Positions 3,115-7,919 of a stretch of DNA of 13,042 nt are shown piece by piece. Location of the stretch: the IMG/VR virus record IMGVR_UViG_2585427782_000003, positions 1 to 13,042 of that record. One strand, written 5' to 3'. The DNA is from a virus (lineage: Duplodnaviria; Heunggongvirae; Uroviricota; Caudoviricetes). Every line of letters begins with the position of its first letter. Position 1 is the first letter of the stretch. A model generated the notes under the pieces. The model saw only the letters and a list, made by a program, of their open reading frames with translations. It searched no databases and was not told the origin of the DNA. The translations under genes and the position numbers were made by a program.

Positions 3115-4170
3115 GTGCGGGTATTACTTCGACCTGTTCTGGTACCGGAACTCGGGCTGGTGATCGTTAAGCCGGGCCGTGAATCCATGCCGGTATTCCA
3201 CAATACCCGGGTACTGGTGGAGCCGGAACCGAAAAGCATGCGTAATCTGCCGTCCGGGGTCGTTCCTGCCGTTCGCCAGCCGCTGGCGGAGGATAAATCA
3301 TTACTGCCATTTTTCAGCGACGAACGAGTGATTCGTGCTGCTGGTGGCGCTGGCGCATTGTCTGACTGGTTACTGCGCCATGTTAAATCCTGCCAGTGGC
3401 CACACGGCGATTATCACCACAGTGAAACCGTCATTCACCGTTATGGTACCGGCGCAATGGTGTTGTGCTGGCACTGCGACAACCAGCTGCGCGACCAGAC
3501 CTCCGAATCACTCGGGCAACTTGCTCACCAAAACCTGTTTGCATGGATGATTGACGTCATACGCCATGCAATGAATGGCTCGCAGGAACGGGAATTATCG
3601 CTGGCTGAATTATCCTGGTGGGCGGTCCGCAATCAGGTGGCGGACGCGCTACCGGAAGCGGTATTACGTCGTTCGCTGGGGTTGCGTGCGGAAAAAATCC
3701 GCTCAATGTACCGTGAAAGCGACATCGTACCGGGAGAGCAGACCGCCACCAGCATACTGAAGCAGCGCACAAAAAATCTTGCGCCGCTGCCTCACGCCCA
3801 CCAGCAAAACCCGCCACAGGAAAAGACGGTGGTCAGCATTGCCGTTGATCCGGAGTCACCGGCTCAGTATCTCCAGCGCCAGAAATCACAACGGGAAGAG
3901 ATGCCTGTATACACGCGTTGGGTAAAAACGCAGAAATGCATGACGTGTGGCAATCAGGCAGATGATCCGCATCACATCATTGGTCATGGACTGGGAGGGA
4001 TGGGAACAAAGGCTGATGATTTGTTTGTTATTCCGCTGTGCCGTAAATGCCATAGCGAACTACACGCCGGGGTAAAAGATTTTGAAGAAAAACACGGCAG
4101 CCAACTGTTGTTGCTGATTCGTTTTTTAATGCACGCGAGAAATTCGGGTGTTTTGAAGTGGAAAGCATAA
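3115..4170 (+). CDS. DUF968/YdfU-like phage protein with C-terminal Cys/His zinc-binding (HNH-like) motif
   Basis: 351-aa ORF starting at GTG 3115, 4 nt after GGAGG (3106-3110); C-terminus contains CMTCGNQADDPHHIIGH...CRKCHSELH; sits upstream of rusA and Q as in Qin-type nin regions. Confidence 0.75.
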   Translation: MRVLLRPVLVPELGLVIVKPGRESMPVFHNTRVLVEPEPKSMRNLPSGVVPAVRQPLAEDKSLLPFFSDERVIRAAGGAGALSDWLLRHVKSCQWPHGDYHHSETVIHRYGTGAMVLCWHCDNQLRDQTSESLGQLAHQNLFAWMIDVIRHAMNGSQERELSLAELSWWAVRNQVADALPEAVLRRSLGLRAEKIRSMYRESDIVPGEQTATSILKQRTKNLAPLPHAHQQNPPQEKTVVSIAVDPESPAQYLQRQKSQREEMPVYTRWVKTQKCMTCGNQADDPHHIIGHGLGGMGTKADDLFVIPLCRKCHSELHAGVKDFEEKHGSQLLLLIRFLMHARNSGVLKWKA

Positions 4171-4551
4171 ATGACTGAACGCATAGAATTTGTTTTGCCT
4201 TACCCGCCAACGGTGAACACTTACTGGCGTCGTCGTGGCAGCACATATTTTGTATCAAAAGCCGGGGAGCGTTATCGCCGGGCAGTGGCGCTTATTGTTC
4301 GCCAGCAGCGGCTGAAATTAAGCCTGTCCGGAAGGTTGGCAATAAAAATTATTGCAGAACCACCGGATAAGCGCCGCCGTGACCTGGACAATATTCTGAA
4401 AGCGCCGCTGGATGCGCTGACGCATGCGGGGTTGCTAATGGACGATGAGCAGTTTGATGAAATCAATATCGTTCGTGCTCAGCCAGTATCTGGTGGACGT
4501 CTGGGGGTGAAGATTTACCCCATAATGCTTGAAGGGCAGGTCAAAAAATGA
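4171..4551 (+). CDS. rusA: RusA-family Holliday junction resolvase
   Basis: 126-aa ORF; N-terminal LPYPPTVNTYWRRRG and central RRRDLDN motifs resemble E. coli RusA; start codon abuts the previous stop (TAAATG). Confidence 0.9.
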   Translation: MTERIEFVLPYPPTVNTYWRRRGSTYFVSKAGERYRRAVALIVRQQRLKLSLSGRLAIKIIAEPPDKRRRDLDNILKAPLDALTHAGLLMDDEQFDEINIVRAQPVSGGRLGVKIYPIMLEGQVKK

Positions 4552-5369
4552 AACTGGAAGATTTACCGAAATACTACTCCCCAAAATCCCCCGGCCTGAC
4601 TGATGCATCGGCCTCAACGTCGAAAGATGCGCTGAGTATCACTGATGTGATGGCCGCGCAGGGCATGACACAGAATCGGGCTGAGATGGGGTTTTCTGCG
4701 TTCCTTGGGAAAATGGGCATTAGTATGAATGACAGAGAGCGGGCAACAGAATTGCTGACAGAATATGCACTCAGTCGGTGTGATCGCGTGGCGGCGTTAA
4801 GAAAACTCCCGGCAGAAATAAAACCGGTAGTGATGCGCATTATGGCTTCGTACGCTTTTGAGGATTATGCCCGCAGCGCAGCGAGTAAAAAGCAGTGCCC
4901 TTGTTGCTATGGGGAAAAATTTATTGAAAGCGTAGTTTTTACAAACAAGGTCCAGTATCCGGATGGTAAGCCGCCGGTATGGGCAAAGTGTACGAAAGGT
5001 GTGTATCCGTCTTACTGGGAAGAATGGAAAAAAGTCAGGGAGGTGGTAAAAGTTGCCTGTCCGGAGTGTGGCGGAAAGGGTGAGGTTTCCACCGCCTGTA
5101 AGGATTGCCGTGGGCGTGGTGTCGCCATTCATCGTGAAGAGTCGGTAAAACGTGGTATGCCTGTTATCAGAGACTGCCAGCGTTGTGGTGGTCGTGGCTG
5201 TGAAAGGCTACCATCAACGGAGGCATTTAATGCCATATGCAAAGTGACGAGTGCTATCACGCTTGATACGTGGAAAAAATCAGTGAAACGCTTTTACGAT
5301 ACGTTGGTGGTTCGGTTTGACATTGAAGAGGCATGGGCGGAGCGGCAGTTAAAGAGGGTAACGCGATAG
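4548..5369 (+). CDS. Late-gene antiterminator Q-like protein with DnaJ-type zinc-finger repeats
   Basis: 273-aa ORF overlapping the rusA stop (ATGA); carries CPECGGKG, CKDCRGRG and CQRCGGRG (CxxCxGxG) repeats plus CPCCYGEK; lies immediately upstream of a lambda PR'-like promoter, which is the main basis for the Q assignment. Confidence 0.7.
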   Translation: MKLEDLPKYYSPKSPGLTDASASTSKDALSITDVMAAQGMTQNRAEMGFSAFLGKMGISMNDRERATELLTEYALSRCDRVAALRKLPAEIKPVVMRIMASYAFEDYARSAASKKQCPCCYGEKFIESVVFTNKVQYPDGKPPVWAKCTKGVYPSYWEEWKKVREVVKVACPECGGKGEVSTACKDCRGRGVAIHREESVKRGMPVIRDCQRCGGRGCERLPSTEAFNAICKVTSAITLDTWKKSVKRFYDTLVVRFDIEEAWAERQLKRVTR

Positions 5370-5374
5370 TGTTG

Positions 5375-5430
5375 TTGATTTTTCCCGAATCTGTGGTAAA
5401 TTTGCTCTAACGATGGGCGTTTTATGCCTG
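5375..5430 (+). promoter_or_regulatory. PR'-like late promoter with putative qut site
   Basis: TTGATT (5375-5380), 16-nt spacer, TAAATT (5397-5402), then TTGCTCTAACGATGGG, which closely resembles the lambda PR' -10/initial transcribed region as recalled (GGGTAAATTTGACTCAACGATGGG). Confidence 0.55.
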
Positions 5431-5451
5431 ACGTTAGAAGATTTTTTACAC

Positions 5452-5473
5452 CCCGCCGCCTGGCGGGTTTTTT
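5452..5473 (+). terminator. tR'-like intrinsic terminator
   Basis: Hairpin CCCGCC-GCCT-GGCGGG (5452-5467) followed by TTTTTT (5468-5473), about 50-65 nt downstream of the putative PR' start. Confidence 0.6.
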
Positions 5474-5595
5474 ATGACTGAAATCGCGTCAGTACAGTAA
5501 ACGCGCTGGTGGCGGTGAATACCTGTCTTTCAGCTTGCTGGCTTTTTCGACAAGAGTTATTGGTGTGTCACGTTAACCGGAAAAGGGAAAAAGAC

Positions 5596-5793
5596 ATGCT
5601 AAAACAGCAGGATATGACAGAAACCGCCAGAGTAGTGTTTAATGAATTAAGCGTTACCGAACCGGCGACAGTCGGGGAGATTGCACAGAATACTTACCTT
5701 TCACGCGAACGCTGCCAGTTAATACTGACCCAGCTGGTTATGGCGGGTCTGGCAGACTATCAGTTCGGTTGTTACAGACGCCTTCCGCAGTGA
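5596..5793 (+). CDS. Small hypothetical protein, possible winged-helix/HTH DNA-binding protein
   Basis: 65-aa ORF from ATG 5596 with AGGGA 7 nt upstream (six-frame ORF 5509-5793 is the longer in-frame version); helix-turn-helix-like stretch TVGEIAQNTYLSRERCQLILTQL; terminator overlaps its stop. Confidence 0.5.
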   Translation: MLKQQDMTETARVVFNELSVTEPATVGEIAQNTYLSRERCQLILTQLVMAGLADYQFGCYRRLPQ

Positions 5794-5807
5794 AGGCTTT
5801 TTTATTT
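5780..5807 (+). terminator. Intrinsic terminator
   Basis: Hairpin GCCTTC-CGCAGT-GAAGGC (5780-5797) followed by TTTTTTATTT. Confidence 0.55.
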
Positions 5808-5943
5808 GTGGTAAATGGGCGGCTGGTGGGTGTTAGGGGCACCCACCAGCCATCTGCTCATGCGTTGGGTTCACAAGCAAACCTCAGGCCCACTGCTTTG
5901 CGCAAAAGCAGAATGAGCCTATCAGAGACAGGCTTAATGATCC

Positions 5944-6993
5944 ATGCTTAATACTGTAAAAATATCCAGTTGTGAGTTAATCAACGCCGACTGCCTGGAA
6001 TTTATCCGGTCGTTACCCGAAAATTCTGTTGACCTGATAGTTACGGACCCGCCGTACTTTAAAGTGAAGCCTGAGGGCTGGGATAACCAGTGGAAGGGCG
6101 ACGATGATTACCTGAAGTGGCTGGACCAGTGTCTGGCGCAGTTCTGGCGGGTGCTGAAACCTGCCGGAAGTCTTTACCTGTTCTGTGGTCATCGCCGGGC
6201 ATCTGATATCGAAATCATGATGCGTGAACGCTTCAGTGTGCTGAACCATATTATCTGGGCGAAGCCGTCCGGACGCTGGAACGGATGCAACAAGGAAAGC
6301 CTGCGGGCGTATTTCCCCGCCACAGAGCGCATTCTGTTCGCGGAACATTATCAGGGGCCGTATCGTCCGAAAGATGCCGGGTATGCGGCGAAGGGCAGTG
6401 CACTGAAACAGCATGTGATGGCCCCGCTGATTTCTTACTTTCGTGATGCGCGCGCGGCCCTGGGGATAACGGCAAAACAGATTGCAGATGCCACAGGAAA
6501 GAAAAACATGGTGTCGCACTGGTTCAGTGCCAGTCAGTGGCAGCTACCGAACGAAAGCGATTATCTGAAATTACAGTCGCTGTTTGCCCGGGTGGCAGAA
6601 GAGAAACATCAGCGCGGTGAACTGGAAAAGCCCCACCACCAGCTGGTGGATACGTATACGTCACTGAACCGGCAGTATGTGGAGCTGCAGAGTGAATATA
6701 AGCATCTGCGGCGGTATTTTGGTGTGACGGCGCAGGTGCCGTACACGGATGTGTGGACACATAAACCGGTGCAGTTCTATCCCGGGAAACATCCGTGCGA
6801 AAAACCGGCAGAAATGCTGCAGCAGATAATCAGCGCAAGCAGTCGTCCGGGTGACCTGGTTGCAGATTTTTTTATGGGCTCAGGTTCAACGGTAAAAGCT
6901 GCACTGGCGCTCGGGCGTCGTGCGATTGGCGTTGAACTGGAGACCGGACGTTTTGAGCAGACAGTCAGGGAAGTTCAGGATTTAATCGTTTGA
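5944..6993 (+). CDS. Orphan DNA amino-methyltransferase, beta class (probably N6-adenine)
   Basis: 349-aa ORF with catalytic motif IV DPPY near the N-terminus (IVTDPPYF) and SAM-binding motif I FFMGSGST near the C-terminus, the beta-class order; no restriction endonuclease gene adjacent. Confidence 0.85.
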   Translation: MLNTVKISSCELINADCLEFIRSLPENSVDLIVTDPPYFKVKPEGWDNQWKGDDDYLKWLDQCLAQFWRVLKPAGSLYLFCGHRRASDIEIMMRERFSVLNHIIWAKPSGRWNGCNKESLRAYFPATERILFAEHYQGPYRPKDAGYAAKGSALKQHVMAPLISYFRDARAALGITAKQIADATGKKNMVSHWFSASQWQLPNESDYLKLQSLFARVAEEKHQRGELEKPHHQLVDTYTSLNRQYVELQSEYKHLRRYFGVTAQVPYTDVWTHKPVQFYPGKHPCEKPAEMLQQIISASSRPGDLVADFFMGSGSTVKAALALGRRAIGVELETGRFEQTVREVQDLIV

Positions 6994-7042
6994 AACGGAT
7001 GAGATTGCAGAATTAATTACGCACCGTTATTATGCGGCTCCC

Positions 7043-7118
7043 GGCCCTTTAGCTCAGTGGTGAGAGCGAGCGACTCATAATCGCCAGGTCGCTGGTTCAA
7101 ATCCAGCAAGGGCCACCA
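7043..7118 (+). tRNA. ileZ: tRNA-Ile2 (anticodon CAU, lysidine type; reads AUA)
   Basis: 76-nt cloverleaf: acceptor GGCCCTT/AAGGGCC, D-arm GCTCAGTGGTGAGAGC, anticodon loop CTCATAA, T-arm GGTTCAAATCC, 3' CCA; close to E. coli ileX as recalled. Confidence 0.9.
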
Positions 7119-7125
7119 TCACATA

Positions 7126-7202
7126 CCGCCATTAGCTCATCAGGATAGAGCGCCAGCCTTCGAAGCTGGTTGCGCGGGGTTCGAGTCCTCGATGGCGGTC
7201 CA
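7126..7202 (+). tRNA. argN: tRNA-Arg (anticodon UCG; reads CGA/CGG)
   Basis: 77-nt cloverleaf: acceptor CCGCCAT/ATGGCGG, anticodon stem CCAGC/GCTGG with loop CTTCGAA, T-loop TTCGAGT, 3' CCA. Confidence 0.8.
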
Positions 7203-7215
7203 TTATCTGTACCCT

Positions 7216-7292
7216 GCGTTGTTAGCTCAGCCGGACAGAGCAATTGCCTTCTAAGCAATCGGTCACTGGTTCGAATCCAGTACAACGCGCCA
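7216..7292 (+). tRNA. argO: tRNA-Arg (anticodon UCU; reads AGA/AGG)
   Basis: 77-nt cloverleaf: acceptor GCGTTGT/ACAACGC, anticodon stem ATTGC/GCAAT with loop CTTCTAA, T-arm ACTGG-TTCGAAT-CCAGT, 3' CCA. Confidence 0.85.
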
Positions 7293-7306
7293 CACTTATT
7301 TTCCCT

Positions 7307-7332
7307 GGCTCGCTTTTGCGGGCCTTTTTTTT
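7307..7332 (+). terminator. Intrinsic terminator after the tRNA cluster
   Basis: Hairpin GGCTCGC-TTTT-GCGGGCC followed by TTTTTTTT. Confidence 0.6.
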
Positions 7333-7528
7333 AAATGTCTCACAATTCAGACGGTTGACTGTTGTCTGGTTGGCGGGGAGTTTGTTAAAAGAAACTGGCA
7401 TGGTGAATCCCCCTGTGCGGAGGGGCAATCAGCGAGTAGGTATATGGGATAATCGCGGATTCAGGTGCTGGTACTGAATTCACCGGGAGGCACCCGGCAC
7501 CATGCAATGGCACATAGCGCCACTCTCC

Positions 7529-7560
7529 AGCCCCTCTCCGGAGGGGCTGTTTATATTGAT
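7529..7560 (+). terminator. Terminator-like hairpin
   Basis: Perfect 8-bp stem AGCCCCTC/GAGGGGCT with loop TCCG, followed by a T-rich tract GTTTATATTGATTTT. Confidence 0.4.
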
Positions 7561-7583
7561 TTTGTCAGATGTGAGTAAACTGC

Positions 7584-7919
7584 TTATGGACTTTGTTGTT
7601 TTAGCCCATAAGGACATATTTGCAGAGTGCAACGGTTATTAAAGCATTCATTCAATACGTTATCTGTATTTGTAGGGCATTCCTGGCTGTTTTTGATTAA
7701 ATTCCAGAATGTTTTATTGAATGGTACTACGTTGTAAATGGTTACAGGTAGCACTTTGTTATTGAGCATGATGCCTGTGTGAGTCAGTGTAAATATACTT
7801 TCAGGAGGTAAGAAAGCATCCGATTGATACCAGATTATTAATTTTATTTTACTCCATATGACTGAAAAAGATATTCCGCATGATGGCTGGATAACTGTAT
7901 CAATCACAATCCACTTCAT
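7584..7919 (-). CDS. Hypothetical protein in the AT-rich cargo slot
   Basis: 111-aa ORF opposite to late transcription; AGGA 6 nt upstream of its ATG (minus strand reads AAGGAAACTAAATG); open frame of 111 codons is unlikely by chance in AT-rich DNA (rough estimate, not computed rigorously); product not recognised. Confidence 0.3.

Follow-up and report, generated by a model that had tools for sequence, protein, structure and literature searches.

The closest described relatives of the locus reported here are M.EcoGI and M.EcoGII, orphan β-class methyltransferases (MTases) of 349 aa that are borne by prophages of the E. coli O104:H4 strain C227-11 (Murray et al. 2018, PMC5778455). M.EcoGII was shown to methylate adenine non-specifically, and it is both toxic and silent in its host (PMC5778455); the target-recognition region (TRD) of the two enzymes is a helix-turn-helix four-helix bundle. 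M.EcoMV (prophage Phi4 of EC958) and M.Eco95JB1I/II (O111 STEC) belong to the same family, match M.EcoGI/M.EcoGII at 92–99% and are annotated as non-specific, and in lysogens these homologues gave undetectable methylation or were untranscribed (PMC4659465, PMC6602927); they are likened here to the enzyme under study from their descriptions, as other alleles in other host prophages. The promiscuous phage adenine MTases of the α class (Drozdz et al. 2012, as cited in PMC5778455) are likewise phage-borne and relaxed in specificity, with a presumed anti-restriction role, but they have the opposite order of motifs (FxGxG, TRD, DPPY) and form an unrelated lineage. Two further systems are comparable in gene order rather than in enzyme. 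The controller (C) proteins of Type II restriction–modification (R-M) systems are also small products with a DNA-binding fold, encoded just upstream of the modification gene. In com-mom of phage Mu, a small regulatory gene and a structured leader lie 5' of a toxic DNA-modifying enzyme, which is expressed late and stays silent in the lysogen. Mom itself has been cited as silent and toxic (PMC12707154).

The window analysed here is a stretch of 13,042 nt from a virus of the Caudoviricetes (IMG/VR record IMGVR_UViG_2585427782_000003). In it, the late operon of a lambdoid prophage includes an MTase of the M.EcoGI/M.EcoGII family, accompanied by a small gene and a structured leader RNA.

The methyltransferase and its relatives

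The MTase gene lies on the + strand at positions 5944–6993 and encodes a 349-aa protein that matches Pfam PF01555 (N6_N4_Mtase) with E = 7.9e-45. The coordinates and the motif order read in the initial annotation are borne out, the order being that of β-class N6-adenine MTases with DPPY at residues 35–38 and F-M-G-S-G (FxGxG) at residues 310–314. Degeneracy of these motifs had been raised as a possibility; on alignment, both the catalytic and the SAM-binding motif are intact and unchanged across 17 homologues. From an alignment of 17 sequences, AlphaFold2 gave a model of the enzyme with a mean pLDDT of 49, too low for use.

Over its full length the protein shares 330 of 349 residues (~95%) with M.EcoGII as a raw count against a reference machine-read from a supplementary PDF, which contains evident errors (NHHIW, RRRAIG, TKVPQYY); once the obvious misreadings are discounted, the figure is at least 334 of 349, leaving ~15 substitutions. 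Exact sequence look-up of two hand-corrected versions of the reference gave no match. The TRD is included in the ~95% likeness, with only ~3 differences from the machine-read M.EcoGII across residues ~160–237. The MTase of phage 1720a-02, which has been named as very similar to M.EcoGII (PMC5778455), is also ~95% identical to the window enzyme. Judging from this near-identity, the prophage carries its own copy of M.EcoGI/M.EcoGII, a non-specific adenine MTase that has been characterised before, and non-specific activity of this allele is predicted from the same likeness. The earlier remark that some prophage β-class adenine MTases have relaxed specificity is therefore directly relevant, given the ~95% identity to an enzyme of that kind (PMC5778455). 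M.EcoGI, M.EcoGII and the window MTase belong to one common and very large E. coli prophage family: the region was matched in 3391 of 5426 complete E. coli genomes, and the protein is exactly WP_032304845.1, a RefSeq entry on 264 contigs that is found identically in E. coli and E. albertii.

The orphan status proposed in the initial annotation also held. Among PADLOC models, the MTase was the sole match in the window, with no endonuclease partner. A cognate restriction gene lying nearby but outside the window was looked for in the complete prophage of the nearest relative, which carries an identical MTase, and no restriction gene was present from integrase to tail. A DUF968/HNH gene at 3115–4170 was considered as a cognate nuclease and rejected: it is one of the standard genes of the nin region, lies 5' of RusA and Q and was not matched by PADLOC.

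Late-operon setting and comparison with phage 933W

Upstream of the module, a Q-type late antiterminator gene (4548–5369, + strand) encodes a QuuQ-like protein of 273 aa that matches Pfam PF03589 (E = 5e-51) and phrog_127 ('anti-termination protein Q-like') and contains a DnaJ-type zinc finger. The predicted late promoter PR' follows at 5375–5414 (+ strand), with a −35 element TTGATT at 5375–5380, an extended −10 element TGgTAAATT at 5394–5402 and a pause-inducing −10-like AACGAT at 5409–5414, all assigned by eye; pairwise alignment shows that GGTAAATTTG and AACGATGGG match the lambda PR' core exactly, and the PR' and pT assignments are made by homology to lambda and 933W. A generic promoter scan of the + strand from 5200 to 8200 returned no promoter; PR' scored 8/12, below the threshold of 9, and was passed over. 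Next comes a strong intrinsic terminator, tR' (CCCGCCGCCTGGCGGG plus TTTTTTAT; 5452–5475, + strand), identified by terminator scan and RNA folding (−21.9 kcal/mol, z = −2.9), with a hairpin at 5452–5467 and a T run behind it. An equivalent terminator is present 5' of the module in all aligned loci, and a PR' transcript ending at tR' would be ~65 nt long. PR' is constitutive, with its transcription stopped at tR' in lysogens and read through in the presence of Q (PMC7547250).

Directly downstream of the MTase are three tRNA genes (7043–7118, 7126–7202 and 7216–7292), and beyond them genes for an esterase, holin, lysozyme and Rz. The placement of the module between Q/PR'/tR' and the tRNA genes given in the initial annotation is thus correct in all its coordinates, and late, Q-dependent expression of the MTase is the natural reading, with the timing deduced from position. 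An extended −10-like TGTGrAA(A)T lies just 5' of the leader and may permit Q-independent transcription of the MTase.

The gene order is that of the Stx2 phage 933W, whose late region runs Q-pR'-tR'-ileZ/argN/argO-stx2AB-esterase-S-R and whose annotation (pR', qut, terminators, tRNAs and late genes) matches the architecture of the window. The tRNA block is ~91% and the lysis block ~92% identical between the two, the esterase gene only 69–85%. The stx2AB genes of 933W sit exactly at window position 7333/7336, where the window has nothing. Of the module, in turn, 933W retains just the last ~100 nt of the MTase coding sequence, upstream of its tRNAs, and has neither the small ORF nor the leader. 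Because this 3'-end scar is retained, 933W is, on this comparison, a deletion derivative that lost the module, rather than the window phage having gained it; the initial annotation, which described the MTase as inserted between tR' and the tRNA genes, had the direction wrong.

The winged-helix gene, hairpin T1 and leader RNA

The 65-aa ORF at 5596–5793 (+ strand), preceded by a purine-rich stretch, matches phrog_331 with E = 1.4e-37. Its Pfam TrmB score of 18 bits is below the cut-off of 25.6, and no NCBIfam match and no Xre/HTH_3 Pfam match was found. The AlphaFold2 model (pLDDT 91) shows three helices (H1-H2-H3) and a β-wing hairpin, so the helix-turn-helix-like protein with its own terminator that was initially annotated is confirmed as a protein of the winged-helix type. 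Its best PDB fold matches are winged-helix domains of the IclR/MarR type (TM 0.8–0.83, E ≥ 1.5e-3), with SelB among the fold matches, and the product is a bare winged-helix domain without a dimerisation or effector domain.

Conservation of the ORF had been left as a point to check. It is a real gene and not a chance ORF, since more than 50 diverged loci have it intact and dN/dS, where computable, is 0.04–0.45, consistent with purifying selection. It is linked to the MTase in 57 of 75 genome loci and 65 of 67 viral contigs, across a range from Escherichia to Xenorhabdus, and this tight linkage suggests a related function. A conserved element, CTTGCTG-N(9-13)-AGAGTTAyyTGTrTGTCA, lies upstream at 5534–5571 (+ strand); this element is found within 150 nt upstream of the ORF at 54 of the 57 loci that have it and at none of the 21 that do not, and is a candidate weak sigma-70 promoter and/or operator. 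Most likely, the winged-helix gene is an optional accessory sub-module that encodes a DNA-binding, or possibly RNA-binding, regulator of the module.

The terminator scan also found a terminator-like hairpin, T1 (GCCTTCCGCAGTGAAGGC plus TTTTTTATTT; 5780–5805, + strand), whose stem at 5780–5797 contains the stop codon of the small ORF. Every locus, with or without the ORF, has a hairpin of this type 5' of the leader; its stem varies, and a T run usually comes after it. T1 would insulate the MTase from upstream transcription.

Between T1 and the MTase, and abutting the MTase ATG, lies a conserved structured leader RNA of ~130 nt (5815–5943, + strand) with strong covariation. Its helices are H1 (5816–5820/5887–5891), H2 (5821–5832/5840–5851), H3 (5855–5858/5876–5879) and H4 (5894–5897/5906–5909). 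The leader retains 80–85% nucleotide identity where dS is saturated and the coding sequence is 63–77% identical; 93.6% of cells in the helices are paired, and double changes occur in 13 of 24 pairs, compared with 4.9 ± 1.5 in shuffled controls (0/500) and 3–8 when the helices are slid. A first RNAalifold model, built on close relatives only, placed an AAGCG/CGCUU pairing beside the ATG, which was dropped because covariation among diverged leaders favours an xGCU/AGCx hairpin. The + strand of 5800–5943 has no Rfam match at E ≤ 1; a minus-strand match to Rfam P26 (24 bits, gathering score 36) was sub-threshold and treated as chance. The MTase follows the leader in 76 of 76 viral contigs, the leader is found only before MTases of this type, and the MTase start codon has no canonical Shine–Dalgarno sequence. 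An upstream ORF within the leader, coupled to the MTase start by an ATGA overlap (loci L005 and L046), was rejected: indels shift its frame and most loci stop after 7 codons.

We tentatively propose, as a possibility and not as the probable outcome, that the winged-helix gene with its own element, the hairpin and the covarying leader form a dedicated, undescribed circuit for dosing a toxic, non-specific MTase. The role of the leader in such a circuit, as we infer it, would be that of a cis-regulatory RNA of a new class, which senses a protein or a ligand (e.g. SAM/SAH) and gates translation of an mRNA that has no Shine–Dalgarno sequence.

Proposed role and competing explanations

The most likely role of the module is the Q-dependent late expression of an enzyme that would methylate progeny DNA against host restriction, as had been suggested initially and as is proposed in the M.EcoGII literature (PMC5778455). 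We assign a probability of roughly three in four to the reading that a lambdoid prophage without stx carries, in its late operon, an M.EcoGI/M.EcoGII-type non-specific N6-adenine MTase that is silent in the lysogen, depends on Q and methylates phage DNA against restriction. In a lysogen, PR' would fire constitutively and its transcripts would end at tR' (5452–5475) or else at T1 (5780–5805), so that the toxic MTase would stay silent. Upon induction, Q would render RNA polymerase terminator-resistant, and the MTase would be co-transcribed with the tRNAs and lysis genes. With its start codon at the 3' edge of the folded ~130-nt leader and no Shine–Dalgarno sequence, translation would probably be kept low. 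The enzyme would then methylate adenines in any context in replicating and packaged phage DNA, and this methylation would blunt restriction of Types I, II and III when the next host is infected. Heavily M.EcoGII-methylated plasmid transforms E. coli 10^4–10^5-fold worse (PMC5778455); complete methylation of progeny DNA could thus do harm, and only a partial level may be of use.

The alternative that deserves most weight concerns the allele itself. The window MTase has R at residue 85 (codon CGG, 6196–6198), where L is found in 16 of 16 diverged homologues (75–94% identity), in M.EcoGII, in the reconstructed ancestors and in the phage 1720a-02 MTase; among the 5426 complete E. coli genomes, R85 occurs in 14 and L85 in 1361. 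As R85 is rare and L otherwise invariant, the enzyme may be weakened or inactive, and the module in this prophage could be a decaying, functionally inert cargo; IS insertions into the MTase gene in other strains (H41, H42) fit such decay. We consider this doubtful, though worth keeping in mind: the ORF is otherwise intact with all motifs present, and residue 85 lies outside both the catalytic motifs and the dimer-interface residues 97–110 and 116–140 named in PMC11551740. Moreover, the identical protein occurs on 264 contigs in two species, which indicates that phages carrying the R85 allele spread. Rather less likely is a main target other than phage DNA, either RNA or the host chromosome, in the service of host takeover or of modifying the adjacent phage tRNAs and late mRNAs. 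M.EcoGII does methylate ssDNA, RNA and hybrids in vitro and slows growth when expressed (PMC5778455), and in E. coli phages the tRNA genes lie directly 3' of the MTase; however, its activity on RNA is ~100-fold below that on DNA (PMC11551740, Table S3), and in other genera there are no tRNAs and the lysis genes follow the MTase directly. It is very unlikely that the orphan MTase is sequence-specific and serves the lysogen epigenetically or as a regulator in the manner of Dam or CcrM, an option left open by the initial annotation. The Pfam family and class are shared with CcrM and YhdJ, yet the protein scores far under the NCBIfam equivalog cut-offs of both (113 vs 292 and 73 vs 830 bits), it shares ~95% of its residues, those of the TRD among them, with an enzyme of demonstrated non-specificity (PMC5778455), its homologues are silent in lysogens (PMC4659465, PMC6602927), and the gene stands behind two terminators in a late operon.

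Two further alternatives turn on the small gene. A circuit like com/mom of Mu, in which the winged-helix protein binds the leader RNA and unmasks the MTase start as an obligatory translational activator, would fit the order seen here, in which a small gene comes first, then a folded leader and then a toxic modification enzyme that lacks a Shine–Dalgarno sequence, and some winged-helix domains, with SelB among the fold matches here, bind RNA hairpins. The likeness to Mu is one of arrangement, and the proteins and chemistry are unrelated. Against it, an intact MTase and its leader persist in 17 of the 21 loci that lack the small ORF, in the Xenorhabdus/Photorhabdus clade the ORF is accompanied by a different and shorter leader, and the element that tracks the presence of the ORF is a DNA motif upstream of it rather than the leader. 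The small gene is dispensable in many loci, and an obligatory Com-like activator is therefore not supported; we regard this reading as unlikely. That the module is what is left of a Type II R-M system, or a variant of one, with the small protein as its C protein, the controller-like regulator of the initial annotation, is barely credible. A small HTH-like gene does lie 5' of the MTase, but C proteins have an Xre-type HTH, whereas this protein is a winged helix without an Xre/HTH_3 match, encoded in a phage late operon; no C-box was identified at the locus, and neither the window nor the complete related prophage contains an endonuclease gene. RusA and Q stand between the module and the HNH/DUF968 gene upstream of it, and the dispensability of the ORF noted above applies here as well.

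The enzyme in itself adds little: M.EcoGII has already been characterised, is a commercial product in wide use for chromatin footprinting, and comes from a family known to be frequent in E. coli prophages. What the present analysis adds is the precise placement of that family in a Q-controlled late operon behind two terminators, which offers a concrete explanation for the published silence in lysogens, and the view of 933W-type Stx phages as deletion derivatives of the window arrangement. The natural L85R allele may be of interest to enzyme engineers. The late-operon position, a partner gene and a leader are not described in the publications on M.EcoGI and M.EcoGII, and the linked 65-aa winged-helix gene, its conserved upstream element and the covarying ~130-nt leader appear to be undescribed features; the phrog_331 protein and the leader offer ways to test how phages set the dose of a toxic methyltransferase that acts on DNA and RNA in any context.

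A prophage methyltransferase of a known family

The ORF at 5944–6993 (+) encodes a 349-aa protein matching Pfam N6_N4_Mtase (E = 7.9e-45), with its motifs in beta-class order (DPPY at residues 35–38, FMGSG at 310–314), in agreement with the initial annotation of a beta-class methyltransferase (MTase) at this position. Neither motif is degenerate: aligned with 16 homologues (75–94% identity), both are invariant, as is most of the protein. An identical protein (RefSeq WP_032304845.1) is encoded by the prophage of the nearest relative, E. coli YDC107; the exact sequence occurs in 264 contigs and its 90%-identity cluster has 5932 members. At the DNA level, region 5380–7300 is matched in 3391 of 5426 complete E. 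coli genomes (at least 80% covered in 1790 of these) and in 292 phage records. The nearest solved structures are distant beta-class MTases only.

M.EcoGII, a non-specific adenine MTase from E. coli O104:H4, is also a 349-aa, beta-class, prophage-borne enzyme, assigned to "a very large family" of enzymes carried by E. coli prophages; phage 1720a-02 encodes a very similar one (PMC5778455). Compared with an M.EcoGII reference machine-read from Supplementary Table S1 of PMC11551740, which contains obvious reading errors, the MTase matches at 330 of 349 positions raw and ~334 once those errors are discounted, with only about three differences in the target-recognition domain; it is about 95% identical to the 1720a-02 enzyme. 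The MTase is a member of an already known family in its usual genomic setting. Homologues at 92–99% identity are routinely labelled non-specific and occur in lysogens without methylation signal or transcript (PMC6602927; PMC4659465), and M.EcoGII is toxic on expression and silent in its own host.

One caveat attaches to this allele: residue 85 of the MTase is arginine (CGG at 6196–6198) in place of the leucine (CTG) present in all 16 diverged homologues, M.EcoGII and phage 1720a-02. With a 41-nt probe centred on codon 85, the arginine allele was found in 14 of 5426 complete E. coli genomes, versus 1361 for the leucine allele; the MTase of E. albertii NBRC 107761 (locus L003) is 100% identical and therefore also carries R85. 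The structure model of the MTase is poor, and the surroundings of residue 85 are not readable from it.

The description of the MTase as an orphan, lacking a partner endonuclease, was borne out: the prophage of the nearest relative, taken in full from the integrase through to the tail genes, has no restriction gene, and the MTase was the sole match to the PADLOC models. The HNH/DUF968 gene at 3115–4170 was considered and rejected; it is a common nin-region gene, and RusA and Q stand between it and the module formed by the MTase, its leader and a small upstream ORF.

The late region and its counterpart in phage 933W

The prophage is lambdoid, and the window is its region of late regulation. The last position of a Q-family antiterminator gene (PF03589) is 5369, and directly 3' of that gene lies a PR' core (5375–5414) identical to that of lambda, including the −10 region GGTAAATTTG (−10 TAAATT) and the pause-inducing element AACGATGGG (AACGAT). 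The core is lambda-identical, yet the adjoining Q is of the QuuQ-like PF03589 kind with a DnaJ-type zinc finger; no further Q family was matched in Pfam. The strong terminator tR' follows at 5452–5475 (hairpin 5452–5467 plus T run), placing the module downstream of PR'/tR' as initially proposed. Terminator-like hairpins with T runs also occur at 5780–5797 (T1, overlapping the small-ORF stop) and 7307–7324, the latter beyond three tRNA genes (7043–7292) 3' of the MTase. Just 5' of the first tRNA, TTGCAG-17-TATTAT was noted by eye at 7005–7033, where 933W annotates the tRNA promoter pT.

This order is shared with 933W, whose late region is annotated as Q, pR', qut, two terminators, pT, ileZ-argN-argO, terminator, stx2AB, esterase, S and R. 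In Stx phages PR' is constitutive, tR' terminates transcription in lysogens and Q gives read-through (PMC7547250). From the order of Q, lambda-like PR' and tR', and the 933W layout, the MTase is therefore placed upstream of the lysis genes but beyond two intrinsic terminators, tR' and T1. This position fits late, Q-dependent expression, the predicted timing following from gene order.

Homology between 933W and the window starts at 6892, in the terminal ~100 nt of the MTase coding sequence, and continues through the tRNAs at 91% identity. Because it opens inside coding sequence, the ~100-nt MTase 3'-end remnant upstream of the 933W tRNA genes (window 6892–6993, 933W locus L084 2970–3070) is a deletion scar, and 933W-type phages have lost the module; the earlier view that it was inserted between tR' and the tRNA genes had the direction wrong. 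The stx2AB genes of 933W (L084 3463–4703) map precisely to the junction at window positions 7333/7336; the window is therefore a form of the Stx-phage late region that lacks stx, with the gene order shared but no stx2AB at this point. Downstream of stx2B, 933W is 72% identical to window 7336–7506 (STnc100 region).

The stretch from the tRNA block to the esterase gene contains a full-length match to the STnc100 sRNA (7369–7558, +; Rfam RF02076, 133 bits versus a gathering score of 47), which ends in a terminator (7528–7549). An IraM-family anti-adaptor (RssB inhibitor) gene at 7584–7919 (−; NCBIfam NF007393, 162 bits versus a cut-off of 121; phrog_4407) is intact at 111 aa; its copy in YDC107 is annotated as frameshifted. 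A QueH-type epoxyqueuosine reductase (1594–2280, +; PF02677, E = 1e-65) adjoins a 326-aa transposase ORF (369–1349, −), which we take to be IS5, its translation judged by eye. QueH was not found at the corresponding place of the YDC107 prophage, and so may be cargo carried in with the IS. A Hok-family type I toxin gene (2521–2673, +; NCBIfam NF007279, E = 6e-13, below the curated cut-off) corresponds to a gene annotated hokD in the related prophage.

The winged-helix ORF and the leader RNA

The small ORF (5596–5793, +; 65 aa) is a member of phrog_331 (E = 1.4e-37), a family of unknown function, and the hairpin at 5780–5797 over its stop provides the terminator of its own that had been described. 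It has more than 300 database relatives and is intact, at 62–67 codons, in more than 50 diverged loci, with dN/dS of 0.04–0.45 (only where synonymous sites are unsaturated); by these measures of conservation it is a real gene. The AlphaFold2 model is a confident winged helix (pLDDT 91), its best PDB matches being IclR/MarR-type and O-methyltransferase N-terminal winged-helix domains (TM up to 0.83, E at least 1.5e-3); a Pfam TrmB match was below threshold and NCBIfam gave none. The suggestion of a controller-like regulator was not upheld, as a C-protein is ruled out by the wrong fold and the lack of an R gene.

Linkage of the small ORF to the MTase is strong both ways: it lies 76–200 nt upstream in 57 of 75 MTase loci, from Escherichia to Xenorhabdus and Photorhabdus, and a full MTase follows in 65 of the 67 viral contigs that carry it. 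Upstream, at 5534–5571, the conserved element CTTGCTG-N9-13-AGAGTTAyyTGTrTGTCA, found in 54 of 57 loci with the small ORF and 0 of 21 without, looks like a candidate weak sigma-70 promoter and/or operator.

The ~130-nt leader (5815–5943) abuts the MTase ATG and is 80–85% identical across genera, in comparisons where synonymous sites are saturated and both coding sequences are 63–77% identical. Four helices are supported, diverged members included, with 93.6% of cells paired; 13 of 24 pairs change on both sides, versus 4.9 ± 1.5 in shuffles (0/500) and 3–8 in slid controls, and the G-U pairs tie the structure to the + strand. The leader was unmatched in Rfam. It is present in 48 of 80 genome loci and in 17 of the 21 loci without the small ORF, the MTase lies downstream in 76 of 76 viral contigs, and 5' of the leader there is always a hairpin, its stem variable and usually with a T run after it. 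No canonical Shine-Dalgarno sequence accompanies the MTase start, and a single-sequence fold shows the start region paired.

After T1 and before the leader comes a conserved yTGTGrAA(A)T (5806–5816 and equivalents in loci L005–L079, also where the small ORF is absent). It resembles an extended −10, and may serve as a promoter for Q-independent MTase transcription or else belong to the leader RNA. The Xenorhabdus/Photorhabdus loci (L051–L082) keep the small ORF and its upstream element and have a shorter, different leader ~100 nt upstream of the MTase, in which a covarying GC hairpin and the U run after it resemble an intrinsic terminator.

A model for the module

In the lysogen, PR' transcripts would end at tR' and T1; on induction, Q-modified polymerase would pass these terminators, with the leader holding MTase translation low. 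The MTase would then methylate adenines of progeny DNA and so blunt the restriction that they meet in a next host; the small winged-helix protein would be an optional regulator of the sub-module. What the analysis establishes is the sequence, the gene order, the linkage and the covariation, whereas the MTase activity, when it is expressed and what the accessory parts do are inferred. The initial annotation was broadly right apart from the controller and the insertion. The MTase itself is of little interest; a moderate lead lies in its undescribed winged-helix partner and its structured leader.
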